DNA of 64,000 bases from a plasmid. A program made the position numbers and the translations under genes. Below the pieces are notes generated by a model. It worked only from the letters and a program-made list of their open reading frames with translations. It made no database searches and had not been told where the DNA came from. The stretch is taken from the NCBI RefSeq assembly GCF_054482525.1, contig NZ_JBTHVG010000003.1. One strand, written 5' to 3'. Shown here piece by piece: positions 22,121-43,843 of the stretch (positions are counted from its first letter, which is position 1; every line of letters starts with the position of its first letter).

Positions 22121-22940
22121 GGCACTGTTGCAAATAGTCGGTGGTGATAAACTTATCATCCCCTTTTGCTGATGGAGCTGCACATGAACCCATTCAAAGG
22201 CCGGCATTTTCAGCGTGACATCATTCTGTGGGCCGTACGCTGGTACTGCAAATACGGCATCAGTTACCGTGAGCTGCAGGAGATGCTGGCTGAACGCGGA
22301 GTGAATGTCGATCACTCCACGATTTACCGCTGGGTTCAGCGTTATGCGCCTGAAATGGAAAAACGGCTGCGCTGGTACTGGCGTAACCCTTCCGATCTTT
22401 GCCCGTGGCACATGGATGAAACCTACGTGAAGGTCAATGGCCGCTGGGCGTATCTGTACCGGGCCGTCGACAGCCGGGGCCGCACTGTCGATTTTTATCT
22501 CTCCTCCCGTCGTAACAGCAAAGCTGCATACCGGTTTCTGGGTAAAATCCTCAACAACGTGAAGAAGTGGCAGATCCCGCGATTCATCAACACGGATAAA
22601 GCGCCCGCCTATGGTCGCGCGCTTGCTCTGCTCAAACGCGAAGGCCGGTGCCCGTCTGACGTTGAACACCGACAGATTAAGTACCGGAACAACGTGATTG
22701 AATGCGATCATGGCAAACTGAAACGGATAATCGGCGCCACGCTGGGATTTAAATCCATGAAGACGGCTTACGCCACCATCAAAGGTATTGAGGTGATGCG
22801 TGCACTACGCAAAGGCCAGGCCTCAGCATTTTATTATGGTGATCCCCTGGGCGAAATGCGCCTGGTAAGCAGAGTTTTTGAAATGTAAGGCCTTTGAATA
22901 AGACAAAAGGCTGCCTCATCGCTAACTTTGCAACAGTGCC
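22121..22940 (+). mobile_element. tnp26: IS26 copy 1 (canonical Tnp26)
   Basis: 820 bp bounded by GGCACTGTTGCAAA terminal repeats; Tnp26 coding 22184-22888; residue 184 is Gly. Confidence 0.95.
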
Positions 22941-23529
22941 CGCTGTACCAAATGCGGGACAACGTAAGCACTACATTTCGCTCATCGCCGGCCCAGTCGG
23001 GCTGCGAGTTCCATAGCTTCAAGGTTTCCCTCAGCGCCTCGAATAGATCCTGTTCAGGAACCGGGTCAAAGAATTCCTCCGCTGCCGGACCTACCAAGGC
23101 AACGCTATGTTCTCTTGCTTTTGTAAGCAGGATAGCTAGATCAATGTCGATCATGGCTGGCTCGAAGATACCCGCAAGAATGTCATTGCGCTGCCATTCT
23201 CCAAATTGCAGCTCGCGCTTAGCCGGATAACGCCACGGGATGATGTCGTCATGCACGACAAGGGTGACTTCTATAGCGCGGAGCGTCTCGCTCTCGCCAG
23301 GGAAAGCCGAAGCCTCCATAAGATCATTGAGCAATGCTCGCCGCGTCGTTTCATCAAGCTTTACGGCCACAGTAACCAACAAATCAATATCGCTGTATGG
23401 CTTCAGGCCGCCATCCACTGCGGAGCCGTACAAATGCACGGCCAGCAACGTTGATTCCAGATGGCGCTCAATGACGCTTAGCACCTCTGATAGTTGGTTC
23501 GAAATTTCGATGGTCACCGCTTCCCTCAT
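22941..23529 (-). pseudogene. aadA2: aadA2 aminoglycoside adenylyltransferase, 3'-truncated by IS26
   Basis: N-terminal ~196 aa match the AadA2 sequence as recalled (MREAVTIEISNQLSEVLSVIERHLEST...); sequence diverges after RIWYS at the IS26 junction. Confidence 0.85.
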
Positions 23530-23534
23530 GATGT

Positions 23535-23825
23535 CTAACGGGCGAGGTAAGCCGACCGCAGAATGCGGGTCGGCTTGACCGAAATGTTAGAACCAGAAGC
23601 CAAAACGGATAACTTGAATTTGGCGACGGGCGCTAACCGTGAAAAAACGCTGCGCCACCGAGGCGGCACAGCACTGCAAAAACGATAGCTGCTTGCGCTT
23701 GCTACGCAAGGGCTAGAGGCCAAAAAGACTGAAAACCTGCGCAGCCCATGCAGGCGAAGCCCGGAAAAAAGGCAAAACAGGCACTGAATAACGCCTGAAA
23801 AGCTAAATGCCGTTTGAATAAACAT
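23535..23825 (-). CDS. gcuF: gene cassette of unknown function (gcuF/orfF)
   Basis: 96-aa ORF lying between dfrA12 and aadA2 in the classic dfrA12-orfF-aadA2 array; assigned by position. Confidence 0.5.
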   Translation of the reverse strand: MFIQTAFSFSGVIQCLFCLFSGLRLHGLRRFSVFLASSPCVASASSYRFCSAVPPRWRSVFSRLAPVAKFKLSVLASGSNISVKPTRILRSAYLAR

Positions 23826-23936
23826 GAGCTAAATAAAGCTGGGTTTCAGTGGTGCTAACGTTGGACGTAACGAGAGCCGGAGCGCAGCGGAGGGAACCAA
23901 AATGCGCAGCATTTTGGCGTCCCGTTGACGGAATGG

Positions 23937-24434
23937 TTAGCCGTTTCGACGCGCATAAACGGAGTGGGTGTACGGAATTACAGCTTGAATGGTTTCGGTT
24001 GAGACAAGCTCGAATTCTGTTTCGTTGAGCATTGGGAAGAAGGCGTCACCCTCGAAGGTTTGATGTACCTCAGATAGAAACACGCCGTGGGCGTGAGGTA
24101 GTGCCAGAGTGTATATCTCAGCTCCGCCCGCGACGTAGAGTTCATTGCCGAGTTCGGATGCCAAAGCGATAGCGTGCGACAGCGTTGAAACAACTACGCA
24201 GCCAGTGGCGCGGTAGTTAGCTTGGCGTGAGATTACCAATGTGTGACGGTTCGGTAGAGGCTTGCCGATAGACTCAAAGGTCTTTCGCCCCATGACAACG
24301 ACTTTTCCCTCAGTGAGTCTGCGAAAAATCTTCTGCTCACCCGGAATTTTCCAGGGGATATTAGGACCATTGCCAATAACCCGATTGGCTCCCATCGCAG
24401 CAACGAGATAAATGCGTACTGATTCCGAGTTCAT
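23937..24434 (-). CDS. dfrA12: trimethoprim-resistant dihydrofolate reductase DfrA12
   Basis: 165-aa ORF matching the DfrA12 sequence as recalled; first cassette next to attI1. Confidence 0.9.
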   Translation of the reverse strand: MNSESVRIYLVAAMGANRVIGNGPNIPWKIPGEQKIFRRLTEGKVVVMGRKTFESIGKPLPNRHTLVISRQANYRATGCVVVSTLSHAIALASELGNELYVAGGAEIYTLALPHAHGVFLSEVHQTFEGDAFFPMLNETEFELVSTETIQAVIPYTHSVYARRNG

Positions 24435-24578
24435 ATGGCTAACTTTGTTTTAGGGCGACTGCCCTGCTGCGTAACATCGTTGCTGCTCCATAACATCAAA
24501 CATCGACCCACGGCGTAACGCGCTTGCTGCTTGGATGCCCGAGGCATAGACTGTACAAAAAAACAGTCATAACAAGCC
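24435..24578. promoter_or_regulatory. attI1 and cassette promoter region of a class 1 integron
   Basis: Position between the intI1 start and the first cassette; inferred, not motif-checked. Confidence 0.45.
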
Positions 24579-24775
24579 ATGAAAACCGCCACTGCGCCGT
24601 TACCACCGCTGCGTTCGGTCAAGGTTCTGGACCAGTTGCGTGAGCGCATACGCTACTTGCATTACAGTTTACGAACCGAACAGGCTTATGTCAACTGGGT
24701 TCGTGCCTTCATCCGTTTCCACGGTGTGCGTCACCCGGCAACCTTGGGCAGCAGCGAAGTCGAGGCATTTCTGTC
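24579..24775 (+). pseudogene. intI1: class 1 integrase IntI1, N-terminal ~65 codons, truncated by IS26
   Basis: [66 protein letters not shown] then IS26 at 24776. Confidence 0.85.
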
Positions 24776-25595
24776 GGCACTGTTGCAAATAGTCGGTGGT
24801 GATAAACTTATCATCCCCTTTTGCTGATGGAGCTGCACATGAACCCATTCAAAGGCCGGCATTTTCAGCGTGACATCATTCTGTGGGCCGTACGCTGGTA
24901 CTGCAAATACGGCATCAGTTACCGTGAGCTGCAGGAGATGCTGGCTGAACGCGGAGTGAATGTCGATCACTCCACGATTTACCGCTGGGTTCAGCGTTAT
25001 GCGCCTGAAATGGAAAAACGGCTGCGCTGGTACTGGCGTAACCCTTCCGATCTTTGCCCGTGGCACATGGATGAAACCTACGTGAAGGTCAATGGCCGCT
25101 GGGCGTATCTGTACCGGGCCGTCGACAGCCGGGGCCGCACTGTCGATTTTTATCTCTCCTCCCGTCGTAACAGCAAAGCTGCATACCGGTTTCTGGGTAA
25201 AATCCTCAACAACGTGAAGAAGTGGCAGATCCCGCGATTCATCAACACGGATAAAGCGCCCGCCTATGGTCGCGCGCTTGCTCTGCTCAAACGCGAAGGC
25301 CGGTGCCCGTCTGACGTTGAACACCGACAGATTAAGTACCGGAACAACGTGATTGAATGCGATCATGGCAAACTGAAACGGATAATCGGCGCCACGCTGG
25401 GATTTAAATCCATGAAGACGGCTTACGCCACCATCAAAGGTATTGAGGTGATGCGTGCACTACGCAAAGGCCAGGCCTCAGCATTTTATTATGGTGATCC
25501 CCTGGGCGAAATGCGCCTGGTAAGCAGAGTTTTTGAAATGTAAGGCCTTTGAATAAGACAAAAGGCTGCCTCATCGCTAACTTTGCAACAGTGCC
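24776..25595 (+). mobile_element. tnp26: IS26 copy 2 (canonical), left arm of a Tn4352-like unit
   Basis: 820 bp with 14-bp terminal repeats; Tnp26 coding 24839-25543; Gly184. Confidence 0.95.
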
Positions 25596-25732
25596 AATTT
25601 ATGAGTAAAGGATTATGTCCACGATAAGCACCTGGGTCGATTCCTGGGAGGCGGCCATGAGGGTAGGGAAGCGCCGTCCCGTCAAGTCAGCGTAATGCTC
25701 TGCCAGTGTTACAACCAATTAACCAATTCTGA

Positions 25733-26548
25733 TTAGAAAAACTCATCGAGCATCAAATGAAACTGCAATTTATTCATATCAGGATTATCAATACCATATT
25801 TTTGAAAAAGCCGTTTCTGTAATGAAGGAGAAAACTCACCGAGGCAGTTCCATAGGATGGCAAGATCCTGGTATCGGTCTGCGATTCCGACTCGTCCAAC
25901 ATCAATACAACCTATTAATTTCCCCTCGTCAAAAATAAGGTTATCAAGTGAGAAATCACCATGAGTGACGACTGAATCCGGTGAGAATGGCAAAAGCTTA
26001 TGCATTTCTTTCCAGACTTGTTCAACAGGCCAGCCATTACGCTCGTCATCAAAATCACTCGCATCAACCAAACCGTTATTCATTCGTGATTGCGCCTGAG
26101 CGAGACGAAATACGCGATCGCTGTTAAAAGGACAATTACAAACAGGAATCGAATGCAACCGGCGCAGGAACACTGCCAGCGCATCAACAATATTTTCACC
26201 TGAATCAGGATATTCTTCTAATACCTGGAATGCTGTTTTCCCGGGGATCGCAGTGGTGAGTAACCATGCATCATCAGGAGTACGGATAAAATGCTTGATG
26301 GTCGGAAGAGGCATAAATTCCGTCAGCCAGTTTAGTCTGACCATCTCATCTGTAACATCATTGGCAACGCTACCTTTGCCATGTTTCAGAAACAACTCTG
26401 GCGCATCGGGCTTCCCATACAATCGATAGATTGTCGCACCTGATTGCCCGACATTATCGCGAGCCCATTTATACCCATATAAATCAGCATCCATGTTGGA
26501 ATTTAATCGCGGCCTCGAGCAAGACGTTTCCCGTTGAATATGGCTCAT
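25733..26548 (-). CDS. aph(3')-Ia: aminoglycoside 3'-phosphotransferase APH(3')-Ia
   Basis: 271-aa ORF matching the Tn903 kanamycin phosphotransferase sequence as recalled. Confidence 0.95.
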   Translation of the reverse strand: MSHIQRETSCSRPRLNSNMDADLYGYKWARDNVGQSGATIYRLYGKPDAPELFLKHGKGSVANDVTDEMVRLNWLTEFMPLPTIKHFIRTPDDAWLLTTAIPGKTAFQVLEEYPDSGENIVDALAVFLRRLHSIPVCNCPFNSDRVFRLAQAQSRMNNGLVDASDFDDERNGWPVEQVWKEMHKLLPFSPDSVVTHGDFSLDNLIFDEGKLIGCIDVGRVGIADRYQDLAILWNCLGEFSPSLQKRLFQKYGIDNPDMNKLQFHLMLDEFF

Positions 26549-26635
26549 AACACCCCTTGTATTACTGTTTATGTAAGCAGACAGTTTTATTGTTCATGAT
26601 GATATATTTTTATCTTGTGCAATGTAACATCAGAG

Positions 26636-27455
26636 GGCACTGTTGCAAATAGTCGGTGGTGATAAACTTATCATCCCCTTTTGCTGATGGAGCTGCACAT
26701 GAACCCATTCAAAGGCCGGCATTTTCAGCGTGACATCATTCTGTGGGCCGTACGCTGGTACTGCAAATACGGCATCAGTTACCGTGAGCTGCAGGAGATG
26801 CTGGCTGAACGCGGAGTGAATGTCGATCACTCCACGATTTACCGCTGGGTTCAGCGTTATGCGCCTGAAATGGAAAAACGGCTGCGCTGGTACTGGCGTA
26901 ACCCTTCCGATCTTTGCCCGTGGCACATGGATGAAACCTACGTGAAGGTCAATGGCCGCTGGGCGTATCTGTACCGGGCCGTCGACAGCCGGGGCCGCAC
27001 TGTCGATTTTTATCTCTCCTCCCGTCGTAACAGCAAAGCTGCATACCGGTTTCTGGGTAAAATCCTCAACAACGTGAAGAAGTGGCAGATCCCGCGATTC
27101 ATCAACACGGATAAAGCGCCCGCCTATGGTCGCGCGCTTGCTCTGCTCAAACGCGAAGGCCGGTGCCCGTCTGACGTTGAACACCGACAGATTAAGTACC
27201 GGAACAACGTGATTGAATGCGATCATGGCAAACTGAAACGGATAATCGGCGCCACGCTGGGATTTAAATCCATGAAGACGGCTTACGCCACCATCAAAGG
27301 TATTGAGGTGATGCGTGCACTACGCAAAGGCCAGGCCTCAGCATTTTATTATGGTGATCCCCTGGGCGAAATGCGCCTGGTAAGCAGAGTTTTTGAAATG
27401 TAAGGCCTTTGAATAAGACAAAAGGCTGCCTCATCGCTAACTTTGCAACAGTGCC
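26636..27455 (+). mobile_element. tnp26: IS26 copy 3 (canonical), right arm of a Tn4352-like unit
   Basis: 820 bp; Tnp26 coding 26699-27403; Gly184; direct orientation with copy 2, total span 2680 bp. Confidence 0.95.
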
Positions 27456-27664
27456 ATAAGAATATCATCAATAAAATTGAGTGTTGCTCTGTGGATAACT
27501 TGCAGAGTTTATTAAGTATCATTGCAGCAAAGATGAAATCAATGATTTATCAAAAATGATTGAAAGGTGGTTGTAAATAATGTTACAATGTGTGAGAAGC
27601 AGTCTAAATTCTTCGTGAAATAGTGATTTTTGAAGCTAATAAAAAACACACGTGGAATTTAGGG
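27456..27664 (+). mobile_element. ISEcp1 3'-end remnant with right IR, truncated by IS26
   Basis: Ends in ACGTGGAATTTAGGG followed by a ~41-bp spacer before blaCTX-M, the usual ISEcp1 promoter-providing arrangement. Confidence 0.8.
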
Positions 27665-27687
27665 AATACTGATGTAACACGGATTGA

Positions 27688-28581
<894 letters not shown>

Positions 28582-28583
28582 CT

Positions 28584-28932
28584 GGTTTTGTTGAATAAAT
28601 CGAACTTTTGCTGAGTTGAAGGATCAGATCACGTATCTTCCCGACAACGCAGACCGTTCCGTGGCAAAGCAAAAGTTCAAAATCACCAACTGGCCCACCT
28701 ACAATAAAGCCCTCATCAACCGTGGCTCCATAACTTTCTGGCTGGATGATGAAGCTATTCAGGCCTGGTATGAGTCAGCAACACCTTCTTCACGAGGCAG
28801 ACCTCAGCGCTATTCTGACCTTGCCATCACGACTGTGCTGGTCATTAAACGCGTATTCAGGCTGACCCTGCGCGCTGCGCAGGGCTTTATTGATTCCATT
28901 TTTTCTCTGATGAACGTTCCGCTACGCTGCCC
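28584..28932 (+). mobile_element. IS903-like fragment (left IR plus transposase N-terminus)
   Basis: Begins GGTTTTGTTGAATAAATCG; encodes MKDQITYLPDNADRSVAKQKF..., the IS903 transposase N-terminus; breaks off near 28932. Confidence 0.8.
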
Positions 28933-29192
28933 GGTGTAATGTCGGTGCTGATTTGGTCTTCAATAAGGCGATTTTTAGCCCGCTTTTTCCGGGGGGATGA
29001 AATGTTATTGGATTGCTAAATGATTTCAAAAAAGGGGTAACATAGAGCGGGGATTAGTGTGGCGAGGCGCAGGTTTCCGATGGCAGGCTAAACGCAAAAA
29101 ATGCGCTTTTTAGCCGGTGATGAGGTGAGGCCGGGAGGGGATGCGTCGCCGATCACAGTTTACAACAGGGTTTGATAACGGGAGGAAAAGTC

Positions 29193-29609
29193 ATGCTGCA
29201 GGGATTGAATCATCTGACGCTGGCGGTCAGCGATCTGGCGTCAAGCCTGGCATTTTATCAGCAGTTACCTGGAATGCGCCTGCACGCCAGCTGGGATAGC
29301 GGAGCCTATCTCTCCTGTGGGGCGCTGTGGCTGTGCTTGTCGCTGGATGAGCAGCGGCGTAAAACGCCCCCTCAGGAAAGCGACTATACCCACTACGCCT
29401 TCAGCGTGGCGGAAGAAGAGTTTGCCGGGGTGGTGGCTCTGCTGGCGCAGGCGGGGGCTGAGGTATGGAAAGATAACCACAGTGAAGGGGCGTCTTACTA
29501 TTTTCTCGACCCTGACGGCCATAAGCTGGAGCTGCATGTGGGGAATCTGGCGCAGCGGCTGGCCGCCTGTCGCGAACGCCCCTACAAGGGGATGGTCTTT
29601 TTTGATTGA
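29193..29609 (+). CDS. fosA3: fosfomycin-resistance glutathione transferase FosA3
   Basis: Start at internal Met ([15 protein letters not shown]...); 138-aa product matching FosA3 as recalled. Confidence 0.85.
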
Positions 29610-29613
29610 CGGG

Positions 29614-30132
29614 TTAGTTCAGCTTACTGCCGGATTTCAACGTGCAGATCCACAGCGGTGAATTGATAGAGCTGAGCAAGATAGCCTTTTCGTTGAGCTT
29701 CTGAGCGTTGAGAAACAGCCCGTCGTGGCTGTCGGACATCTCGCGCATAAAGTAGTCGAAAATCACGTTCGGCGATTCATCAATCGAGGAGGCGCTCGAT
29801 TCCCACTGATTGATGCGGTAATGACGCTCGGTGGCCGAGATGCGTTTGCTGCTGTAGGTAAACTTCACGTAGCGTTGCAGGTAGAGCCAGCCGGCGGCGG
29901 AGTCGGTGTAACCTTCGACCACCATCGAGCCTTTACCCTGCGCGCCAAAATTGAAGTGAATATTGCCGTTAACGTTCTCTTTGTCCATGTTCTCAAAGCG
30001 CATGATGCCCTTAGTGGAACAGCTCATGACACCCGCGTTGTCGGCAGGCAGCAGCCGCCAGGCGCTAAACGCGGCGGCGGCAATAAATACCAGAACGCAG
30101 AGGGCAAAGAACGGACGCGGCGCGAGTCTCAT
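29614..30132 (-). CDS. hypothetical exported protein linked to fosA3
   Basis: 172-aa ORF with N-terminal signal/TM segment, in the position of orf1 of the fosA3 module. Confidence 0.5.
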   Translation of the reverse strand: MRLAPRPFFALCVLVFIAAAAFSAWRLLPADNAGVMSCSTKGIMRFENMDKENVNGNIHFNFGAQGKGSMVVEGYTDSAAGWLYLQRYVKFTYSSKRISATERHYRINQWESSASSIDESPNVIFDYFMREMSDSHDGLFLNAQKLNEKAILLSSINSPLWICTLKSGSKLN

Positions 30133-30831
30133 TACGGCTTCCAGGAGTAGTAAAAGTAGTTATCGCAATAGCTGAACGGGTTATCTTCATGCATGGCGCA
30201 GTGGGCAAGGAACACGCGCCCCAGCCCGTTGGTTTCGAGCCGATCGCCGTAGAAGAAAAGAAAACGTTCACCGGGTTTACAGGCAATATTCAGCCGCTGG
30301 CGTACCTCATCGAAGTTTTTGCCGTAGGACTCTTCACTGACCGAACGTCGCATTTCATCGCTGGCCAGCAGTTCGCACTGGCTATGGCTGAGGCGGGTCA
30401 GCGCGATAGGCTGGGATTCACTGATGCCGACCAGACTGAAGGCAACCAGAAGCAGGGCAATGGTGAGCAAGCAGGCTCCGGCCATGTACCAGCACATCCC
30501 GCGAGCATGTGCGGAGCGCGGTGCGTCTGGCGTTGTCGTAACGGGCGGCGGTTCGGCAGGCGTCTGTTGTGGTGAAACCGGCGGCGCGTCGTCCAGCGCT
30601 TCGATAATGACCTCGGGATTAAGCTGCAAATAGCCGCGCGAGACGGTGACGATGATGTTATCGACGCCGTAATGGCGAAAGGTCTTCCGCAGCATGCTGA
30701 GATACTGATTCAGATTGCTGTTGGATGAGGTTAATCCATTGTCATCCCAGACTTTTTTCAGAACATCTTCCCGGCTGACAATCTCGGTATGGCGCAGAAA
30801 ATAGTTAAACAGGGCGCTGGCGGTGAGGGAT
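30132..30831 (-). pseudogene. winged-helix regulator gene, 5'-truncated by IS26
   Basis: ORF N-terminus MNKTKGCLIANFATVP is encoded inside IS26 copy 4; the native part has a transmembrane segment and a C-terminal DNA-binding-like region. Confidence 0.5.
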
Positions 30832-31651: not shown

Positions 31652-31801
31652 CGTCATACTTTCGCCTTCATGATCTGCAACGAGTTGATCAATAATAAGC
31701 GAAATTCGATAACGAAATTCGATATAAATCTAGAAAAAAATACCTCTATGTGTACTACGCAGTTTTAGCTGTGGCTTTCACAGGAGCACGCTTACTTACG
31801 G

Positions 31802-31839
31802 CTTAGCGTGCTTTATTTTCCGTTTTCTGAGGCGATCCC
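31802..31839. repeat. Tn21-subgroup-like 38-bp terminal inverted repeat
   Basis: Reverse complement reads GGGATCGCCTCAGAAAACGGAAAATAAAGCACGCTAAG, close to the Tn21 IR as recalled; abuts the orf5 break point. Confidence 0.5.
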
Positions 31840-32016
31840 TAGGAGCTCGGATCTCAGGACGAAGGTCTCCGCGAATGTCCGGTCGATCCGCGCGACGTCC
31901 CAGGCGGGCGTTCCCTTGGCGGACATCCACGCCGCAGCGTCGTGCATCAGCCGCACAACCTCGTCGATATCACCCGAGCAGGCGACCCGAACGTTCGGAG
32001 GCTCCTCGCTGTCCAT
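31840..32016 (-). pseudogene. orf5 (GNAT family) of the class 1 integron 3' conserved segment, truncated
   Basis: MDSEEPPNVRVACSGDIDEVVRLMHDAAAWMSAKGTPAWDVARIDRTFAETFVLRSELL then divergence. Confidence 0.7.
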
Positions 32017-34655: not shown

Positions 34656-35475
34656 GGCACTGTTGCAAATAGTCGGTGGTGATAAACTTATCATCCCCTT
34701 TTGCTGATGGAGCTGCACATGAACCCATTCAAAGGCCGGCATTTTCAGCGTGACATCATTCTGTGGGCCGTACGCTGGTACTGCAAATACGGCATCAGTT
34801 ACCGTGAGCTGCAGGAGATGCTGGCTGAACGCGGAGTGAATGTCGATCACTCCACGATTTACCGCTGGGTTCAGCGTTATGCGCCTGAAATGGAAAAACG
34901 GCTGCGCTGGTACTGGCGTAACCCTTCCGATCTTTGCCCGTGGCACATGGATGAAACCTACGTGAAGGTCAATGGCCGCTGGGCGTATCTGTACCGGGCC
35001 GTCGACAGCCGGGGCCGCACTGTCGATTTTTATCTCTCCTCCCGTCGTAACAGCAAAGCTGCATACCGGTTTCTGGGTAAAATCCTCAACAACGTGAAGA
35101 AGTGGCAGATCCCACGATTCATCAACACGGATAAAGCGCCCGCCTATGGTCGCGCGCTTGCTCTGCTCAAACGCGAAGGCCGGTGCCCGTCTGACGTTGA
35201 ACACCGACAGATTAAGTACCGGAACAACGTGATTGAATGCGATCATGGCAAACTGAAACGGATAATCAACGCCACGCTGGGATTTAAATCCATGAAGACG
35301 GCTTACGCCACCATCAAAGGTATTGAGGTGATGCGTGCACTACGCAAAGGCCAGGCCTCAGCATTTTATTATGGTGATCCCCTGGGCGAAATGCGCCTGG
35401 TAAGCAGAGTTTTTGAAATGTAAGGCCTTTGAATAAGACAAAAGGCTGCCTCATCGCTAACTTTGCAACAGTGCC
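34656..35475 (+). mobile_element. tnp26: IS26 copy 5 (Tnp26 G184N variant)
   Basis: 820 bp; Tnp26 coding 34719-35423; RIINATLGF instead of RIIGATLGF, plus one silent change. Confidence 0.95.
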
Positions 35476-35625
35476 GCCCCAGCAGCATCTCCAGCTGTGA
35501 ACGCTGTTCGGCTGACGGTATCAGTGCCAGTTTGTTCCACAGGCGCAACGTCGCCTTTTCCCTTACCTCTGAAATCAACCGGGTCAGCGTAGTGGCTCCG
35601 GGGAGAATAATAGTCTATCCCGGCA

Positions 35626-36003
35626 TTGCCAGTCGGGGATATTAAAAAGAGTATAGGTTTTTATTGCGATAAACTAGGTTTCACTTTGGTTCACCATGAA
35701 GATGGATTCGCAGTTCTAATGTGTAATGAGGTTCGGATTCATCTATGGGAGGCAAGTGATGAAGGCTGGCGCTCTCGTAGTAATGATTCACCGGTTTGTA
35801 CAGGTGCGGAGTCGTTTATTGCTGGTACTGCTAGTTGCCGCATTGAAGTAGAGGGAATTGATGAATTATATCAACATATTAAGCCTTTGGGCATTTTGCA
35901 CCCCAATACATCATTAAAAGATCAGTGGTGGGATGAACGAGACTTTGCAGTAATTGATCCCGACAACAATTTGATTAGCTTTTTTCAACAAATAAAAAGC
36001 TAA
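35626..36003 (+). CDS. bleO: bleomycin-binding protein, BleO-like
   Basis: Low-GC ORF matching the pUB110-type BleO sequence as recalled (PVGDIKKSIGFYCDKLGFTLVHHEDGFAVLMCNEVRIHLWEA...); the track starts it at a TTG, so the true N-terminus is uncertain. Confidence 0.75.
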   Translation: MPVGDIKKSIGFYCDKLGFTLVHHEDGFAVLMCNEVRIHLWEASDEGWRSRSNDSPVCTGAESFIAGTASCRIEVEGIDELYQHIKPLGILHPNTSLKDQWWDERDFAVIDPDNNLISFFQQIKS

Positions 36004-36020
36004 AATCTATTATTAATCTG

Positions 36021-36085
36021 TTCAGCAATCGGGCGCGATTGCTGAATAAAAGATACGAGAGACCTCTCTTGTATCTTTTTTATTT
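36021..36085 (+). terminator. tandem hairpins with T-run downstream of bleO
   Basis: TTCAGCAATC-GGGCGC-GATTGCTGAA then AGATACGAGAGA-CC-TCTCTTGTATCT followed by TTTTTTATTTT. Confidence 0.55.
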
Positions 36086-36090
36086 TGAGT

Positions 36091-36185
36091 GGTTTTGTCC
36101 GTTACACTAGAAAACCGAAAGACAATAAAAATTTTATTCTTGCTGAGTCTGGCTTTCGGTAAGCTAGACAAAACGGACAAAATAA
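36091..36185. repeat. long imperfect palindrome in the bleO module
   Basis: TTTTGTCCGTT...CCGAAAGAC...GTCTGGCTTTCGG...AACGGACAAAA, nested inverted repeats over ~95 bp. Confidence 0.4.
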
Positions 36186-36322
36186 AAATCTAAATATGCT
36201 TGAACAACTTGTAACTTAAATTCATAACTGTATTTTGCCATAAAAAATGACCTCCCATAAGTTAGATTTTTGGTCTAACTTATGGGGGTCAGTTCATTCT
36301 ACACTTGGGCTGCATGTTTTGA

Positions 36323-36715
36323 TTAATTATCTAATATCTCCGGATCTCCTGTAAAGGAATATAAAACTGCCTGCATGTTTTTCAAATAAAATACGGTGAA
36401 TTTCCCATCATCAGCGCTATACCAATCTCTCAAAAACGGATTTGCTTCAAGCATTGCTTCCCTTGCTTCCACGGTATCATCAATTACGGCTTCGCCGGTG
36501 AGCCGAATCCATTTTCCTTTTGCCATACCTGAGACTTCCACCTTTGAATTTGCCAATAACTGCTGATAAACTTTTTTCTGATTGGTTGTACCAAGATAGA
36601 CCTTGCCATTCCTCTCCATGGCTGCATTAAACGGTCTGACCCTTGGCTGGTCTCCTTCAACGGTTGCAAAATAAAAAGTTTTTGCTTCATTTAAAAAATC
36701 AACAACTTGACTCAT
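36323..36715 (-). CDS. pyridoxamine 5'-phosphate oxidase-like (split-barrel flavin-binding) protein
   Basis: 130-aa low-GC ORF; family assignment from general resemblance, unverified. Confidence 0.5.
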   Translation of the reverse strand: MSQVVDFLNEAKTFYFATVEGDQPRVRPFNAAMERNGKVYLGTTNQKKVYQQLLANSKVEVSGMAKGKWIRLTGEAVIDDTVEAREAMLEANPFLRDWYSADDGKFTVFYLKNMQAVLYSFTGDPEILDN

Positions 36716-36759
36716 CCTTTTTTACCTCCATAAATAAATTTTTCTTTACTTTTCTTTGA

Positions 36760-36997
36760 CCTAAATTCCACGTGCATTTTTTATTAGCTTAAAAGAACAC
36801 TATTTCACGAAGAATTTAAACTGATACTCCCACATTGTAACATTATTTACCACCACCTTTCAATCTTTTTCAATAAATTATTGATTGCAACTTTTGAGTA
36901 AAGATACTTATTAAACCCTGCAAGTTATCCACAGAGCAACACTCGATTTTCAAGATGATATCTTTATTATACCAGACATTTTTCATACACTTCCTTG
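36760..36997 (-). mobile_element. divergent ISEcp1-like (IS1380 family) 3'-end remnant, truncated by IS26
   Basis: Reverse complement aligns at roughly 85% identity with the ISEcp1 remnant at 27456-27664 and ends in ACGTGGAATTTAGG about 45 bp upstream of the 36715 start codon. Confidence 0.6.
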
Positions 36998-37817
36998 GGC
37001 ACTGTTGCAAAGTTAGCGATGAGGCAGCCTTTTGTCTTATTCAAAGGCCTTACATTTCAAAAACTCTGCTTACCAGGCGCATTTCGCCCAGGGGATCACC
37101 ATAATAAAATGCTGAGGCCTGGCCTTTGCGTAGTGCACGCATCACCTCAATACCTTTGATGGTGGCGTAAGCCGTCTTCATGGATTTAAATCCCAGCGTG
37201 GCGTTGATTATCCGTTTCAGTTTGCCATGATCGCATTCAATCACGTTGTTCCGGTACTTAATCTGTCGGTGTTCAACGTCAGACGGGCACCGGCCTTCGC
37301 GTTTGAGCAGAGCAAGCGCGCGACCATAGGCGGGCGCTTTATCCGTGTTGATGAATCGTGGGATCTGCCACTTCTTCACGTTGTTGAGGATTTTACCCAG
37401 AAACCGGTATGCAGCTTTGCTGTTACGACGGGAGGAGAGATAAAAATCGACAGTGCGGCCCCGGCTGTCGACGGCCCGGTACAGATACGCCCAGCGGCCA
37501 TTGACCTTCACGTAGGTTTCATCCATGTGCCACGGGCAAAGATCGGAAGGGTTACGCCAGTACCAGCGCAGCCGTTTTTCCATTTCAGGCGCATAACGCT
37601 GAACCCAGCGGTAAATCGTGGAGTGATCGACATTCACTCCGCGTTCAGCCAGCATCTCCTGCAGCTCACGGTAACTGATGCCGTATTTGCAGTACCAGCG
37701 TACGGCCCACAGAATGATGTCACGCTGAAAATGCCGGCCTTTGAATGGGTTCATGTGCAGCTCCATCAGCAAAAGGGGATGATAAGTTTATCACCACCGA
37801 CTATTTGCAACAGTGCC
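36998..37817 (-). mobile_element. tnp26: IS26 copy 6 (Tnp26 G184N variant)
   Basis: 820 bp; Tnp26 coding 37050-37754 on minus strand; Asn184. Confidence 0.95.
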
Positions 37818-38073
37818 AGTTTTATTGTTACATTTAAATCCACGCCGGGATCGCGGTTTTTTATCCCCCCCCTGGACCGCACATAAAGTGCAACAATTAT
37901 TCTTGCACTTAGTTAAGCGCCTTCCTACAATCGCCGCGATAGTGTATTCGAAATTGTTACAGTTTTGTGGCGATGATCGACACAAATGGCCTTAAGCCAG
38001 CCCGGACAAAGGAAGTGGCGCGGCTTCTCACGCTGCGTCTTGCCCGGCGGCTACATTTACCGGAATAAAAATA

Positions 38074-39249
38074 ATGAGCCTGCAAAAAACCTGGGGAAAC
38101 ATTCACCTGACCGCGCTCGGCGCGATGATGCTCTCCTTTCTGCTCGTCGGCTGCGACGACAGCGTCGCACAGAATGCTGCGCCTCCCGCCCCGACGGTCA
38201 GCGCCGCTAAGGTGCTGGTGAAGTCGATCAGTCAGTGGGATAGTTTTAACGGTCGCATTGAAGCGGTGGAGAGCGTTCAGCTTCGCCCTCGCGTCTCGGG
38301 ATACATTGATAAAGTGAATTACACTGACGGCCAGGAGGTGAAAAAGGGCCAGGTGCTGTTCACGATAGATGACAGAACCTATCGCGCCGCGCTGGAGCAG
38401 GCGCAGGCGGCGTTGGCAAGAGCCAAAACGCAGGCCAGCCTCGCGCAAAGCGAGGCGAACCGCACCGATAAATTAGTCCATACCAACCTCGTCTCCCGTG
38501 AAGAGTGGGAGCAGCGCCGGTCAGCCGCGGTTCAGGCGCAGGCCGACGTTCGCGCCGCGCAGGCGGCGGTGGATGCCGCGCAGCTTAACCTCGACTTCAC
38601 CAAAGTGACCGCCCCTATTGACGGCCGCGCCAGCCGGGCGCTGATCACCAGCGGTAACCTGGTCACCGCGGGCGACACCGCCAGCGTGCTCACCACCCTG
38701 GTCTCGCAAAAGACGGTGTACGTCTACTTTGACGTCGACGAGTCAACCTACCTCCACTATCAAAACCTCGCCCGCCGCGGGCAAGGCGCGTCCAGCGATA
38801 ATCAGGCGCTCCCGGTGGAGATTGGCCTGGTGGGCGAGGAGGGTTACCCCCACCAGGGCAAAGTGGATTTTCTCGATAATCAGTTAACGCCGAGTACCGG
38901 CACCATCCGCATGCGTGCGCTGCTGGATAACTCGCAGCGTCTGTTCACGCCGGGGCTGTTTGCCCGCGTGCGTCTGCCGGGCAGCGCAGAGTTCAAAGCC
39001 ACGCTGATCGACGACAAAGCGGTACTGACCGATCAGGATCGTAAATACGTCTATATCGTTGATAAAGATGGTAAAGCACAGCGCCGCGACATTACCCCAG
39101 GGCGGCTGGCAGACGGTTTACGCATCGTTCAGAAGGGGTTGAATCCTGGGGATAGCGTCATCGTCGACGGCTTACAAAAAGTGTTTATGCCGGGTATGCC
39201 GGTTAACGCCAAAACCGTTGCCATGACCTCCAGCGCCACCCTTAACTGA
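38074..39249 (+). CDS. oqxA: RND efflux periplasmic adaptor OqxA
   Basis: 391-aa ORF with lipoprotein signal (LLVGC) and membrane-fusion-protein sequence matching OqxA as recalled. Confidence 0.95.
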   Translation: MSLQKTWGNIHLTALGAMMLSFLLVGCDDSVAQNAAPPAPTVSAAKVLVKSISQWDSFNGRIEAVESVQLRPRVSGYIDKVNYTDGQEVKKGQVLFTIDDRTYRAALEQAQAALARAKTQASLAQSEANRTDKLVHTNLVSREEWEQRRSAAVQAQADVRAAQAAVDAAQLNLDFTKVTAPIDGRASRALITSGNLVTAGDTASVLTTLVSQKTVYVYFDVDESTYLHYQNLARRGQGASSDNQALPVEIGLVGEEGYPHQGKVDFLDNQLTPSTGTIRMRALLDNSQRLFTPGLFARVRLPGSAEFKATLIDDKAVLTDQDRKYVYIVDKDGKAQRRDITPGRLADGLRIVQKGLNPGDSVIVDGLQKVFMPGMPVNAKTVAMTSSATLN

Positions 39250-39272
39250 TCCCTAATCAGAGAATCCAAGAC

Positions 39273-42200
39273 ATGGACTTTTCCCGCTTTTTTATCGACA
39301 GGCCGATTTTCGCCGCGGTGCTGTCGATTTTAATTTTTATCACCGGGTTAATCGCTATCCCACTGCTGCCGGTGAGCGAATATCCGGATGTCGTCCCGCC
39401 GAGCGTCCAGGTGCGCGCGGAGTATCCCGGCGCCAACCCGAAAGTGATTGCCGAGACCGTGGCGACGCCGCTGGAGGAAGCGATCAACGGCGTTGAAAAC
39501 ATGATGTACATGAAATCGGTCGCCGGCTCCGACGGCGTGCTGGTCACCACCGTCACCTTCCGCCCGGGTACCGACCCGGATCAGGCGCAGGTTCAGGTGC
39601 AGAACCGCGTCGCGCAGGCCGAAGCGCGTCTGCCGGAGGATGTACGCCGTCTGGGGATCACCACCCAGAAGCAGTCTCCGACGCTGACCCTGGTGGTGCA
39701 TCTGTTCTCCCCCGGCGGGAAGTACGACTCGCTGTATATGCGCAACTACGCCACGCTGAAAGTGAAGGATGAGCTGGCGCGCCTGCCCGGCGTCGGCCAG
39801 ATCCAGATTTTTGGCTCCGGTGAATATGCGATGCGCGTCTGGCTGGATCCCAATAAGGTCGCTGCCCGCGGTCTGACGGCCTCGGATGTGGTGACGGCGA
39901 TGCAGGAGCAAAACGTCCAGGTGTCTGCCGGACAGCTTGGCGCCGAGCCGCTGCCGCAGGAGAGCGATTTCCTGATCTCCATTAACGCCCAGGGCCGTCT
40001 GCATACCGAAGAAGAGTTTGGCAATATCATTCTGAAAACGGCGCAGGATGGCTCGCTGGTCCGCCTGCGCGACGTGGCGCGCATCGAGATGGGTTCCGGT
40101 AGCTATGCGCTGCGCTCCCAGCTCAACAATAAGGATGCGGTCGGGATCGGTATCTTCCAGTCACCCGGCGCTAACGCCATCGATCTGTCGAACGCGGTAC
40201 GCGCCAAAATGGCCGAGCTGGCCACCCGCTTCCCGGAAGATATGCAATGGGCGGCGCCGTACGACCCGACGGTTTTCGTCCGCGACTCCATCCGCGCGGT
40301 GGTGCAGACGCTGCTGGAGGCGGTAGTGCTGGTGGTGCTGGTAGTGATCCTGTTCCTGCAGACCTGGCGCGCGTCGATTATCCCGTTGATCGCTGTGCCG
40401 GTATCGGTGGTGGGTACCTTCAGCATTCTCTATCTGCTGGGCTTCTCGCTGAATACCCTGAGCCTGTTCGGGCTGGTACTGGCTATCGGTATCGTGGTGG
40501 ACGACGCCATCGTGGTGGTGGAGAACGTCGAGCGTAATATCGAAGAGGGGCTTGCGCCGCTTGCCGCGGCGTATCAGGCGATGCGTGAGGTCTCCGGGCC
40601 GATTATCGCCATTGCGCTGGTGCTGTGTGCGGTGTTCGTGCCGATGGCGTTTCTCTCCGGGGTCACCGGCCAGTTCTACAAACAGTTCGCGGTGACCATC
40701 GCCATCTCGACGGTGATCTCGGCCATCAACTCGCTGACGCTCTCCCCGGCGCTGGCGGCCCTGCTGTTAAAGCCGCACGGCGCGAAGAAAGACCTCCCTA
40801 CCCGGCTGATCGATCGCCTGTTTGGCTGGATTTTCCGTCCGTTTAACCGCTTTTTCCTGCGCAGCTCGAACGGCTATCAGGGACTGGTAGGCAAAACGCT
40901 TGGACGCCGTGGCGCAGTGTTTGCGGTGTACCTGCTGCTGCTCTGCGCCGCTGGGGTGATGTTTAAAGTCGTCCCCGGCGGGTTTATTCCCACCCAGGAT
41001 AAGCTGTATCTCATTGGCGGCGTGAAGATGCCGGAAGGGTCGTCGCTGGCGCGCACCGACGCGGTGATCCGCAAAATGAGCGAGATCGGGATGAATACCG
41101 AAGGGGTCGACTATGCGGTCGCTTTCCCGGGGCTTAACGCGCTGCAGTTCACCAACACGCCGAATACCGGGACGATCTTTTTTGGCCTGAAACCGTTCGA
41201 CCAGCGCAAACACACGGCGGCGGAAATTAACGCGGAGATCAACGCCAAAATCGCGCAAATCCAGCAGGGCTTTGGCTTTTCCATCCTGCCGCCGCCGATT
41301 TTAGGTCTGGGTCAGGGTTCCGGCTACTCCCTGTACATCCAGGATCGCGGAGGGCTGGGCTATGGCGCGCTGCAAAGCGCGGTGAATGCGATGTCCGGGG
41401 CGATTATGCAGACGCCGGGGATGCACTTCCCGATCTCGACTTACCAGGCTAACGTGCCGCAGCTGGACGTGCAGGTCGATCGCGATAAGGCGAAAGCGCA
41501 GGGGGTATCGCTAACCGATCTGTTCGGTACGCTGCAGACCTATCTCGGCTCGTCTTATGTCAATGACTTTAACCAGTTCGGGCGTACCTGGCGCGTGATG
41601 GCCCAGGCTGACGGACCATACCGCGAGAGCGTGGAAGATATCGCCAATCTGCGCACCCGCAATAATCAGGGCGAAATGGTACCGATCGGCAGTATGGTGA
41701 ATATCAGTACCACCTACGGGCCGGATCCGGTGATCCGCTACAACGGTTATCCGGCGGCGGACCTGATTGGCGATGCCGATCCGCGGGTCCTCTCTTCTTC
41801 GCAGGCGATGACGCATCTGGAAGAGCTGTCGAAGCAGATCCTGCCGAATGGGATGAATATTGAGTGGACGGATCTCAGCTTCCAGCAGGCCACCCAGGGC
41901 AACACGGCGCTGATCGTCTTCCCGGTGGCGGTGCTGCTGGCATTCCTCGTACTGGCCGCGCTGTATGAAAGCTGGACCCTGCCGCTGGCGGTGATCCTTA
42001 TCGTACCGATGACGATGCTCTCCGCGCTGTTTGGCGTCTGGCTGACCGGGGGCGATAACAACGTCTTCGTGCAGGTGGGTCTGGTGGTCCTGATGGGCCT
42101 GGCCTGTAAAAACGCCATTCTGATCGTCGAGTTTGCCCGCGAGCTGGAGATCCAGGGGAAAGGCATCATGGAAGCGGCGCTGGAGGCATGCCGCCTGCGT

Positions 42201-42425
42201 CTGCGCCCGATCGTGATGACCTCCATCGCCTTTATCGCCGGGACCATTCCGCTGATCCTCGGCCACGGCGCGGGGGCGGAAGTCCGCGGCGTCACCGGGA
42301 TCACGGTGTTCTCCGGGATGCTGGGCGTGACGCTCTTCGGTCTGTTCCTGACGCCGGTGTTTTACGTGACGCTACGGAAACTGGTGACCCGCAGGAAGCC
42401 GGTCCAGGAGGATCTGCCCGCCTAG
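39273..42425 (+). CDS. oqxB: RND efflux transporter OqxB
   Basis: 1050-aa ORF, 12-TM RND permease, 23 bp downstream of oqxA. Confidence 0.95.
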   Translation: MDFSRFFIDRPIFAAVLSILIFITGLIAIPLLPVSEYPDVVPPSVQVRAEYPGANPKVIAETVATPLEEAINGVENMMYMKSVAGSDGVLVTTVTFRPGTDPDQAQVQVQNRVAQAEARLPEDVRRLGITTQKQSPTLTLVVHLFSPGGKYDSLYMRNYATLKVKDELARLPGVGQIQIFGSGEYAMRVWLDPNKVAARGLTASDVVTAMQEQNVQVSAGQLGAEPLPQESDFLISINAQGRLHTEEEFGNIILKTAQDGSLVRLRDVARIEMGSGSYALRSQLNNKDAVGIGIFQSPGANAIDLSNAVRAKMAELATRFPEDMQWAAPYDPTVFVRDSIRAVVQTLLEAVVLVVLVVILFLQTWRASIIPLIAVPVSVVGTFSILYLLGFSLNTLSLFGLVLAIGIVVDDAIVVVENVERNIEEGLAPLAAAYQAMREVSGPIIAIALVLCAVFVPMAFLSGVTGQFYKQFAVTIAISTVISAINSLTLSPALAALLLKPHGAKKDLPTRLIDRLFGWIFRPFNRFFLRSSNGYQGLVGKTLGRRGAVFAVYLLLLCAAGVMFKVVPGGFIPTQDKLYLIGGVKMPEGSSLARTDAVIRKMSEIGMNTEGVDYAVAFPGLNALQFTNTPNTGTIFFGLKPFDQRKHTAAEINAEINAKIAQIQQGFGFSILPPPILGLGQGSGYSLYIQDRGGLGYGALQSAVNAMSGAIMQTPGMHFPISTYQANVPQLDVQVDRDKAKAQGVSLTDLFGTLQTYLGSSYVNDFNQFGRTWRVMAQADGPYRESVEDIANLRTRNNQGEMVPIGSMVNISTTYGPDPVIRYNGYPAADLIGDADPRVLSSSQAMTHLEELSKQILPNGMNIEWTDLSFQQATQGNTALIVFPVAVLLAFLVLAALYESWTLPLAVILIVPMTMLSALFGVWLTGGDNNVFVQVGLVVLMGLACKNAILIVEFARELEIQGKGIMEAALEACRLRLRPIVMTSIAFIAGTIPLILGHGAGAEVRGVTGITVFSGMLGVTLFGLFLTPVFYVTLRKLVTRRKPVQEDLPA

Positions 42426-42440
42426 CCTGCAGCAGATAAC

Positions 42441-42478
42441 AAAAAAACCGCCTTCACAATTTGAAGGCGGTTTTTTTT
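42441..42478. terminator. bidirectional rho-independent terminator
   Basis: A-run, AACCGCCTTCA-CAATT-TGAAGGCGGTT hairpin, T-run; lies between convergent oqxB and oqxR. Confidence 0.7.
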
Positions 42479-42494
42479 CGTCACCAGAAAATGA

Positions 42495-43023
42495 TTAATG
42501 CGCTTTTTTAAAGCGGGCGATCATTTCCGGCACCGGGTCGCAGCCGCTGGTATCGGCGTTTTTGACCGCCTCCAGCGCGCTGGCCACGGTATGGCGAGCG
42601 AGGACGTTTAACGAAGCCTGCTCTGCTTCATCGGCAACCGATTTGAAGTACCAGCAGGCGTTGGCGCTGACCACGCAGCGGGCCGGGACGTCAGGACGCG
42701 ACGCCCACAGTTTTTTATCTTCGATAACCGAAAGATAGATATCACGCAGGGTGATCTTGTCCGCCGGACGGCCAAGATGAATTGAGCCGTTGCGACCAAG
42801 CGTGGAGACGATAATGCCGTCACGAGTTAGCGGAACCATTAGTTTACGGATAAAGCTCGGGTTCGCTTCCAGGCCGTAGGCCAGAATCGCACTCGTCGAA
42901 CGTTCACCCATCTGCTCCGCCATTGCTACGCTGAGAACCATCTGCAAAGCTGTCGGGAAGCGGTAATCTAACATGGCAGTGTCCTGGGTTGCGGTGAATC
43001 TTGTTCTTTTTAGCACCGCAGAG
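42495..43023 (-). CDS. oqxR: Rrf2-family repressor OqxR, N-terminus replaced at the IS26 junction
   Basis: Rrf2-like sequence from LDYRFPTALQMVLSVA onward; the in-frame N-terminus MNKTKGCLIANFATVP is encoded inside IS26 copy 7. Confidence 0.65.
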
Positions 43024-43843
43024 GGCACTGTTGCAAAGTTAGCGATGAGGCAGCCTTTTGTCTTATTCAAAGGCCTTACATTTCAAAAACTCTGCTTACC
43101 AGGCGCATTTCGCCCAGGGGATCACCATAATAAAATGCTGAGGCCTGGCCTTTGCGTAGTGCACGCATCACCTCAATACCTTTGATGGTGGCGTAAGCCG
43201 TCTTCATGGATTTAAATCCCAGCGTGGCGTTGATTATCCGTTTCAGTTTGCCATGATCGCATTCAATCACGTTGTTCCGGTACTTAATCTGTCGGTGTTC
43301 AACGTCAGACGGGCACCGGCCTTCGCGTTTGAGCAGAGCAAGCGCGCGACCATAGGCGGGCGCTTTATCCGTGTTGATGAATCGTGGGATCTGCCACTTC
43401 TTCACGTTGTTGAGGATTTTACCCAGAAACCGGTATGCAGCTTTGCTGTTACGACGGGAGGAGAGATAAAAATCGACAGTGCGGCCCCGGCTGTCGACGG
43501 CCCGGTACAGATACGCCCAGCGGCCATTGACCTTCACGTAGGTTTCATCCATGTGCCACGGGCAAAGATCGGAAGGGTTACGCCAGTACCAGCGCAGCCG
43601 TTTTTCCATTTCAGGCGCATAACGCTGAACCCAGCGGTAAATCGTGGAGTGATCGACATTCACTCCGCGTTCAGCCAGCATCTCCTGCAGCTCACGGTAA
43701 CTGATGCCGTATTTGCAGTACCAGCGTACGGCCCACAGAATGATGTCACGCTGAAAATGCCGGCCTTTGAATGGGTTCATGTGCAGCTCCATCAGCAAAA
43801 GGGGATGATAAGTTTATCACCACCGACTATTTGCAACAGTGCC
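43024..43843 (-). mobile_element. tnp26: IS26 copy 7 (Tnp26 G184N variant)
   Basis: 820 bp; Tnp26 coding 43076-43780 on minus strand; Asn184; direct orientation with copy 6 around oqxAB. Confidence 0.95.

Follow-up and report, generated by a model that had tools for sequence, protein, structure and literature searches.

A 21.7-kb IS26-bounded multiresistance island, probably built from modules with standard IS26 beside a pOLA52-type block that keeps IS26-v1

The window, a 64,000-nucleotide stretch of plasmid DNA, carries seven IS26 copies interleaved with resistance segments between positions 22121 and 43843. The left boundary of this island is a truncated Tn1721-type transposon (20571–22120, minus strand), which consists of a 38-bp terminal repeat, GGGGAGCCCGCAGAATTCGGAAAAAATCGTACGCTAAG, at 20571–20608 and the 3′ part of tnpA (NCBIfam Tn3-family transposase, profile positions 466–954); we take the repeat to be that of Tn1721. 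The tnpA piece is interrupted by IS26 copy 1 (22121–22940, plus), which has the standard G184 allele. The adjoining class 1 integron fragment (22941–24775, minus) contains a truncated aadA2, a DUF1010 ORF, dfrA12 (23937–24434; NCBIfam DfrA12) and a 341-bp remnant, which we infer to be attI1/intI1. AadA ends at profile position 199 of 258, and the DUF1010 ORF, annotated as such in relatives as well, is presumably the cassette gcuF. The fragment recurs in the opposite orientation, at 100% identity, in pHXY0908 and pNB4833-1. IS26 copies 2 (24776–25595) and 3 (26636–27455), both of the standard allele and on the plus strand, form the left and right ends of Tn4352 and enclose its 1,040-bp central aphA1 (aph(3′)-Ia) segment (25596–26635, minus; gene at 25733–26548 in the ORF list), which is matched at 100% in five relatives and annotated there as aph(3′)-Ia. 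The following segment (27456–30831, plus) carries blaCTX-M-14 (27706–28581), an IS903 fragment, fosA3 and two downstream ORFs, matches the CTX-M-14/FosA3-annotated regions of pHNTS53-1, pSH16G4909 and pSA1850-CTX at 99.97%, and is followed by IS26 copy 4 (30832–31651, minus), again of the standard allele.

To the right of copy 4 lies an integron 3′-conserved-segment remnant (31652–33318, minus) with a short ORF, sul1 (32144–32983; NCBIfam Sul1), a truncated qacEdelta1 and a 135-bp piece of a cupin gene; six relatives carry this remnant at 100% identity. It is followed by the Tn2/Tn3 38-bp terminal repeat, GGGGTCTGACGCTCAGTGGAACGAAAACTCACGTTAAG, at 33319–33356 and the 3′ part of tnpA (33319–34655, minus; Tn3-family transposase profile positions 546–954), which together match pOLA52 41897–43233 at 100%. 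The two tnpA fragments of the island, 20571–22120 and 33319–34655, were also considered as halves of one transposon, a reading rejected because they are unrelated in sequence. The second fragment is interrupted by IS26 copy 5 (34656–35475, plus), an IS26-v1 (459A, 613–614 AA; Tnp26 N184), and beyond it the segment 35476–36997, matching pOLA52 at 99.87%, carries bleO (about 35614–36000, plus) and a nimC-like gene (36323–36715, minus; pyridoxamine 5′-phosphate oxidase family), assigned from NCBIfam bleO and the annotation in relatives. IS26 copy 6 (36998–37817, minus) and copy 7 (43024–43843, minus), both IS26-v1, form the left and right ends of the oqxAB pseudo-compound transposon Tn6010 and flank oqxA (38074–39249), oqxB (39273–42425) and the gene for the Rrf2-family regulator oqxR (42495–42974, minus) in the plus-oriented segment 37818–43023. 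Copy 7 is also the right boundary of the island, adjoining the IncHI2 backbone.

The initial annotation had described seven 820-bp IS26 copies with intact 14-bp ends in two sequence classes. Consistent with this, the 14-bp end GGCACTGTTGCAAA occurs 14 times (0.05 matches expected by chance), as seven inverted pairs spaced at exactly 820 bp, and BLAST of IS26 against the window returned exactly seven full-length and no partial copies. Column-by-column comparison reveals that copies 1–4 are mutually identical, that copies 5–7 are mutually identical, and that the two classes are separated by three bases only: 459 G>A, which changes CCG to CCA and is silent at P132, and 613–614 GG>AA, which changes GGC to AAC and gives Tnp26 G184N. 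Both the assignment of G184 to copies 1–4 and N184 to copies 5–7 and the further silent difference that copies 5–7 were said to share are thus confirmed, the latter also being visible as ESRD versus ESWD in an antisense frame. All seven tnp26 genes, annotated in relatives as ‘IS6-like element IS26 family transposase’, translate from position 64 into an intact protein of 234 aa with RIIGATLGF in copies 1–4 and RIINATLGF in copies 5–7; they lie on the plus strand in copies 1, 2, 3 and 5 and on the minus strand in copies 4, 6 and 7. Among the 14 flanking 8-mers no match, direct or reverse complement, was found that would mark an 8-bp target-site duplication, and none surrounds Tn4352; as no such duplication is expected after the conservative route of Tnp26 or after later rearrangement, this does not argue against membership in IS26. 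Of the 35 possible placements of three variant copies among seven, 5 put them side by side and 2 put them together at one end, so their clustering alone is weak evidence and draws its support from the comparative data.

On their sequence, copies 5–7 appear to be plain IS26-v1, a named and already described isoform. IS26-v1 is defined by three bases that differ from IS26, two of them causing Tnp26 G184N (PMC9412624), and corresponds to the isoform IS15-delta-1 (PMC6807381); copies 5–7 have exactly 459 G>A and 613–614 GG>AA, with no difference from IS26-v1 detected in the comparison. Position 184 lies in the loop that follows the helix bearing the E of the DDE motif (PMC8477213). The effect of G184N on cointegration that the initial annotation had mentioned is borne out by citing passages of four papers (PMC8477213, PMC9019673, PMC11137137, PMC12540391), which credit Pong et al. 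2019 (FEMS Microbiol Lett 366:fnz031) with the finding that it raises Tnp26 activity and cointegration frequency. Given this reported gain in cointegration frequency, the three v1 copies are probably the more active IS26 of the island, a prediction taken from this citing literature. The two forms often occur in one replicon (6,266 copies of IS26 vs 1,385 of IS26-v1; PMC11137137).

Our comparison with pOLA52 reveals 99.94% identity to window positions 33319–41422 (8.1 kb compared). The four checkable junctions, c5L, c5R, c6L and c6R, are identical in pOLA52, where the allele at bases 459, 613 and 614 is likewise AAA (AAA denoting v1 and GGG the standard form), and the third IS26 of pOLA52 is identified as v1 from its protein accession and from 819 nt that match at 100%. 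Copies 6 and 7, both on the minus strand, surround oqxAB–oqxR as in Tn6010, with copy 5, bleO, nim and the Tn2/3 repeat upstream as in the pOLA52-type block. By comparison, the dfrA12, Tn4352 and CTX-M-14/fosA3 modules are absent from pOLA52, in which only a 348-bp IS903-like piece matches besides the shared block. One refinement concerns the border of the block: the sequence shared with pOLA52 begins at the Tn2/Tn3 repeat (33319), which precedes copy 5 by 1,337 bp, and not where the allele switches.

To survey the linkage of N184 to resistance modules, as the initial annotation had proposed, PLSDB was searched with queries that joined 500 bp of flank to 230 bp from the right end of IS26, and matches to the IS alone were excluded by an E-value threshold of 1e-150. 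This design types positions 613–614 at right-end (IRR) junctions only, left-end junctions being typed in individually compared loci, and the percent-identity typing agreed with the sequence in all 8 of 8 plasmids compared. Among the sampled rows, which are a spread sample and not phylogenetically independent, N184 outnumbers G184 at the oqxR–IS26 junction (31 vs 11) and at the nim/bleO–IS26 junction (23 vs 6), whereas it accounts for at most 1 against 17 G184 at the fosA3-module junction and at most 2 against 31 G184 at the Tn4352 junction (pooled Fisher p = 8e-16 for oqxAB/bleO vs Tn4352/fosA3, kinship ignored). In the sampled PLSDB plasmids N184 thus makes up about 74–79% of typed oqxAB and bleO junctions and about 6% of those of Tn4352 and fosA3, being enriched at the former and rare at the latter.

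The backbone flanks of the island are 100% identical to IncHI2 plasmids, and related IncHI2 plasmids retain the stretch spanning copies 4–7 while the left part is variable. All modules are at least 99.9% identical to those of the relatives, differing in order or orientation, and no PLSDB record covers at least 80% of the 24-kb query as one place; pHNTS53-1 is 100% identical to the window over 14.2 kb. A model with a single inversion, leading from a pHNTS53-1/pHXY0908-like ancestor to the window, is compatible with the junction labels. The left-hand orientation of the window is already present in p13C1065T-1 and similar relatives, so no single rearrangement path is favoured.

Taken together, the pOLA52 match, the variation of the left part among IncHI2 plasmids and the enrichment of N184 at oqxAB and bleO junctions support the earlier proposal that the bleO/oqxAB part arrived separately. 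We consider it very probable, from sequence comparison, that the locus is an IncHI2-type, 21.7-kb IS26-bounded multiresistance island in which modules with standard IS26 stand beside a pOLA52-type block that has kept IS26-v1. The right-hand 10.5 kb (33319–43843), with the order Tn2/3 end, IS26-v1, bleO–nim, IS26-v1, oqxAB–oqxR, IS26-v1, would be the known pOLA52-type fragment and would have retained its v1 allele (G184N plus one silent change), while the dfrA12 integron fragment, Tn4352 (aphA1) and the CTX-M-14/fosA3 module would have been joined and reshuffled beside it with standard IS26. Tnp26 yields cointegrates only, by two routes: a copy-in route, which leaves an 8-bp duplication, and a far more frequent targeted conservative route between two IS26, which leaves none (PMC7885326). 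The same paper reports that the transposases, and the DNA at the reacting end, have to be identical. Homologous recombination between IS26 copies contributes inversions and deletions, and together with the two routes it would leave resistance segments interleaved with IS26 without target-site duplications, as observed here.

Among relatives the allele is unstable. At identical junctions, copies 5–7 are all GGG in pSH16G4909, pSA1850-CTX, pS52 and pNB4833-1, as are the two retained junctions in pS585_1; ps11011-CTX has GAA at these junctions, pHXY0908 a mixture (AAA, GGG, AAA), and in pHNTS53-1 the left-boundary IS26 next to fosA3 is also v1. Three plasmids share a frameshift (loss of T463 plus A466C) in the IS26 at the position of copy 5, which shows that base differences in IS26 are passed on together with their junction. 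The variation from AAA to GAA or GGG at the same junction of near-identical plasmids makes the allele a useful but imperfect marker. These differences could arise from gene conversion, from IS swapping, or from homogenisation of the repeat in assembly or polishing.

It would be consistent with this instability if neighbouring IS26 copies had been homogenised locally after assembly, by gene conversion or homologous recombination, the clustering then reflecting proximity instead of origin. Within several relatives copies 5–7 share one allele that differs between plasmids, GAA resembles a recombinant of the standard and v1 forms, and the targeted conservative reaction proceeds by Holliday-junction migration through the IS and could move base differences between copies (PMC7885326). 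However, N184 copies already flank oqxAB in pOLA52 and in the unrelated IncF/IncX backbones of p13P477T-7 and pEC4-2, which carry standard copies elsewhere in the compared stretch; N184 is the majority at oqxAB/bleO junctions in roughly 320–340 plasmids and rare at Tn4352/fosA3; and copy 4, which is standard, remains distinct from v1 copy 5 only 3 kb away. We therefore regard homogenisation as an improbable source of the pattern. An assembly or polishing artefact, in which short reads mapping to several copies of an 820-bp repeat with three differing bases place the wrong variant, is conceivable for the five relatives that are GGG at every IS26 of the compared stretch giving an allele call (one pS52 copy gives none), the uniformity expected if minority bases were polished away, but is highly unlikely for the window, since the pattern of four standard and three v1 copies, with the three bases linked in each, is repeated at the corresponding positions of the independent assembly pHNTS53-1 and is in line with pOLA52, S. 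Indiana 222 and p14EC029b, while mixed or uniform calls are the more likely product of artefacts.

Separate arrival of a v1-bearing block thus remains our preferred reading, and a broader extension of it can be put forward only tentatively: nearly all oqxAB on plasmids might go back to one IS26-v1-mediated capture from a Klebsiella chromosome, with the hyperactive N184 as founder allele and with GGG and GAA at identical junctions of near-identical IncHI2 plasmids arising by frequent block-wise conversion among IS26 copies. If this somewhat doubtful idea were true, the IS copies of one plasmid would evolve in concert, and so rapidly that markers of lineage are lost. IS26 base variants can serve as practical tracers of resistance-module assembly, and G184N may lend the oqxAB/bleO block a higher mobility than that of the adjacent modules. 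The literature already describes the variant, its higher activity and its presence alongside standard IS26 on one replicon, and it covers the movement of the 10-kb pOLA52 fragment into Salmonella IncHI2 plasmids. The window is therefore one further example and not a new principle; a mildly useful addition is the frequency obtained in the survey, with N184 in roughly three quarters of typed oqxAB/bleO junctions vs about 6% at Tn4352/fosA3, together with the instability of the marker between close relatives.

Copies 5–7 are identical to the WP_001067858.1-annotated copies of pOLA52 and many other plasmids, that is, to IS26-v1 (alias IS15-delta-1 or IS15DI), which has 820 bp and the 14-bp ends of IS26. 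As in Tn4352, the directly oriented copies 2 and 3 lie around the aphA1 segment, and they have the standard allele, as do about 94% of the sampled public copies. The IS26-rich IncHI2 islands of pHNTS53-1, pSH16G4909, pHXY0908 and p13C1065T-1 share with the window its backbone boundaries (c1L and c7L) and its modules, but the order and orientation of dfrA12, aphA1 and CTX-M-14/fosA3 are different. The bleO/oqxAB 10-kb block was first seen in the IncX1 plasmid pOLA52, the prototype oqxAB plasmid, and its transfer into Salmonella IncHI2 plasmids has already been proposed (PMC6387526). The pOLA52 order, IS26-v1(+)–bleO–nim–IS26-v1(–)–oqxAB, recurs in the window with the same gene order and IS26 orientations, and the two differ in their surroundings: the right-hand IS26 adjoins the blaTEM-1 part of a broken Tn3 in pOLA52 and the IncHI2 backbone in the window, where, unlike in pOLA52, the Tn2/3 end adjoins the sul1 integron remnant.

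The IS26-bounded multiresistance island (22121–43843) carries seven full IS26 copies and no IS26 fragments, as judged by BLAST of IS26 against the window. The window contains 14 occurrences of the 14-bp end GGCACTGTTGCAAA, arranged as seven inverted pairs with a spacing of exactly 820 bp (chance expectation ~0.05). The tnp26 gene lies on the + strand in copies 1, 2, 3 and 5 (starting at 22121, 24776, 26636 and 34656) and on the – strand in copies 4, 6 and 7 (30832, 36998 and 43024), and all seven transposases are intact (234 aa). Copies 1–4 are all the same, copies 5–7 are all the same, and only three IS26 positions separate the two classes: 459 G>A in copies 5–7 is silent (CCG>CCA, P132), whereas 613–614 GG>AA changes GGC to AAC, giving G184N. 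The bases at 459, 613 and 614 define the alleles used here (GGG, standard; AAA, IS26-v1). The initial annotation had described seven intact 820-bp copies in two classes, separated by G184N and a silent change, the latter seen as ESRD versus ESWD in an antisense frame; this feature is real and was correctly read, and its interpretation holds. Of the 35 possible arrangements of three variant and four standard copies, 2 place all the variants at one end; by itself the clustering is thus only weakly improbable, and the interpretation must rest on comparative evidence.

The left boundary of the island is a transposon end with a 38-bp terminal repeat, which we take to be Tn1721-type, and a truncated tnpA 3' half (20571–22120), cut by standard copy 1. 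It is followed by a truncated aadA2, a DUF1010 open reading frame, dfrA12 and a putative intI1 remnant (22941–24775), by Tn4352 (copy 2, aphA1 and copy 3), and by blaCTX-M-14, an IS903 fragment and fosA3 (27456–30831) up to standard copy 4. Beyond copy 4 lie sul1 and a truncated qacEdelta1 (31652–33318), a Tn2/Tn3 38-bp terminal repeat with truncated tnpA (33319–34655), v1 copy 5 (34656–35475), bleO and a nimC-like gene, v1 copy 6, oqxA, oqxB and oqxR, and v1 copy 7. The adjoining IncHI2 backbone on the right (umuDC, dsbA, traG/trhH) is 100% identical to pHNTS53-1 across 10 kb. The Tn1721-type and Tn2/3 fragments share no sequence kinship with each other. A 135-bp cupin-domain gene fragment (33184–33318) sits between the 5'-truncated qacEdelta1 and the Tn2/3 terminal repeat, and this odd joint is 100% conserved in all eight compared relatives carrying it.

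Our comparison with pOLA52, the IncX1 prototype oqxAB plasmid, reveals the order IS26(+)-bleO-nim-IS26(–)-oqxAB-IS26(–), with all three IS26 copies annotated N184. Two of them, wholly within the fetched stretch, are AAA and share their 20-bp junctions with copies 5 and 6; the third is 100% identical to the v1 allele over 819 nt. Window 33319–41422 is 99.94% identical to pOLA52 41897–50000, which puts the start of the shared block at the Tn2/3 terminal repeat, 1,337 bp to the left of copy 5. For the remaining window modules, the match in pOLA52 is limited to a 348-bp IS903-like piece downstream of blaCTX-M-14 (28587–28934 versus 10378–10725, 98.9%), the only other pOLA52 similarity outside IS26 and the 10-kb block. 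N184 copies around oqxAB also occur in unrelated IncF and IncX backbones (p13P477T-7, pEC4-2).

Related IncHI2 plasmids have the island boundaries in common, together with the copy 4 to copy 7 block, and a 14.2-kb piece is 100% identical in four plasmids; their left-hand modules vary in content as well as in order and orientation. Only four PLSDB plasmids (CP022169, CP033256, CP019260 and CP047551) contain copy 1 and its two flanks (21821–23240) at 100% identity. Since no PLSDB record covers at least 80% of the 24-kb query in a single place, the precise module order may, from these sequence matches, be unrepresented in PLSDB. No matching 8-mers, direct or reverse complement, were found among the 14 IS26 flanks, as expected if the array arose through the targeted conservative reaction of IS26 and recombination between copies (mechanism from PMC7885326) rather than through simple copy-in.

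Allele linkage was surveyed at module junctions in 72,556 PLSDB plasmids, using queries that joined 500 bp of unique flank to the final 230 bp of IS26; percent identity of the match gave the bases at 613–614, and typed rows were drawn from 60 evenly spaced rows per search. The oqxR junction (339 records) yielded 31 N184-type and 11 G184-type rows, a further 15 rows with short junction deletions being left out of the count, and the nim/bleO junction (322 full-length records) yielded 23 and 6. By comparison, the fosA3 module junction (145 full-length records) gave at most 1 N184-type and 17 G184-type rows, and the Tn4352 aphA1 junction (1,109 full-length records) at most 2 and 31. Among sampled rows, the N184 fraction is thus ~74–79% at the oqxR and nim/bleO junctions versus ~6% at the fosA3 and Tn4352 junctions (pooled Fisher p = 8e-16, which overstates the evidence because rows are phylogenetically non-independent), against a background v1 frequency of ~18% (from PMC11137137). 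Identity-based typing agreed with the actual sequence in all eight plasmids fetched as a check. In the sampled rows, the N184 allele is enriched at oqxAB/bleO and rare at Tn4352/fosA3 junctions. Taken together, the pOLA52 match, the variable IncHI2 left modules, the junction surveys and the published 10-kb transfer support the initial proposal that the bleO/oqxAB part arrived separately.

The allele at one identical junction is not constant across close relatives. The copy 5–7 positions are all GGG in pSH16G4909, pSA1850-CTX, pS52 and pNB4833-1, and AAA, GGG, AAA in pHXY0908; pS585_1 keeps two of these junctions, both GGG, and in pHNTS53-1 the left-boundary copy, adjoining fosA3, is v1. Loci L002, L005, L008, L009 and L010 (IncHI2 relatives and pSA1850-CTX) carry the standard allele at every callable IS26, including the bleO and oqxAB junctions; one pS52 copy escaped the typing script because its right end has a base change. 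Such uniformity may reflect real conversion or repeat homogenisation in assembly or polishing, and the junction differences generally could stem from gene conversion, IS exchange during Holliday-junction migration, or homogenisation in polishing. The triplet GAA, G184N without the silent change, occupies the copy 5–7 junctions in ps11011-CTX (L003; 13925, 16267 and 22293, and also 5556) and pEC4-2 (L014; 14475 and 20501), and is possibly an IS26 x IS26-v1 recombinant or, reading from PMC12540391, the variant named IS26-v3. In three different plasmids (L006 16833–17651, L007 12135–12953, L011 12134–12952), the copy-5-position IS26-v1 is 819 bp long, with T463 lost and A466C; its tnp26 is frameshifted and their gene tables list no IS26 coding sequence there, whereas window copy 5 is intact. 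The shared changes look, on sequence grounds, like an inherited lineage marker rather than random sequencing error, so base differences in IS26 can be passed on faithfully at a given junction.

IS26-v1 is defined by three nucleotides unlike IS26, two of them giving G184N (PMC9412624), and corresponds to the old IS15-delta-1 isoform, described as differing by 3 bp and one amino acid (PMC6807381). NCBI protein accessions separate the alleles (WP_001067855.1, G184; WP_001067858.1, N184). The initial statement that G184N raises cointegration agrees with later papers, which link G184N to increased Tnp26 activity and cointegration, citing Pong et al. 2019 (PMC8477213, PMC9019673, PMC11137137, PMC12540391). 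The Tnp26 DNA-binding study locates G184 in a loop that follows the helix bearing the DDE-motif E, and suggested enhanced end binding as a hypothetical cause (PMC8477213). Plasmid-wide transposase counts are 6,266 for IS26 and 1,385 for IS26-v1, both often within one replicon (PMC11137137). In Salmonella, the presence of nimC, blmS, IS26 and Tn3 upstream of Tn6010 has been taken in a review as a sign that an entire 10-kb fragment was transferred from pOLA52 (PMC6387526). Published work already covers the variant and its phenotype, its occurrence alongside standard IS26 and the derivation of the block from pOLA52.
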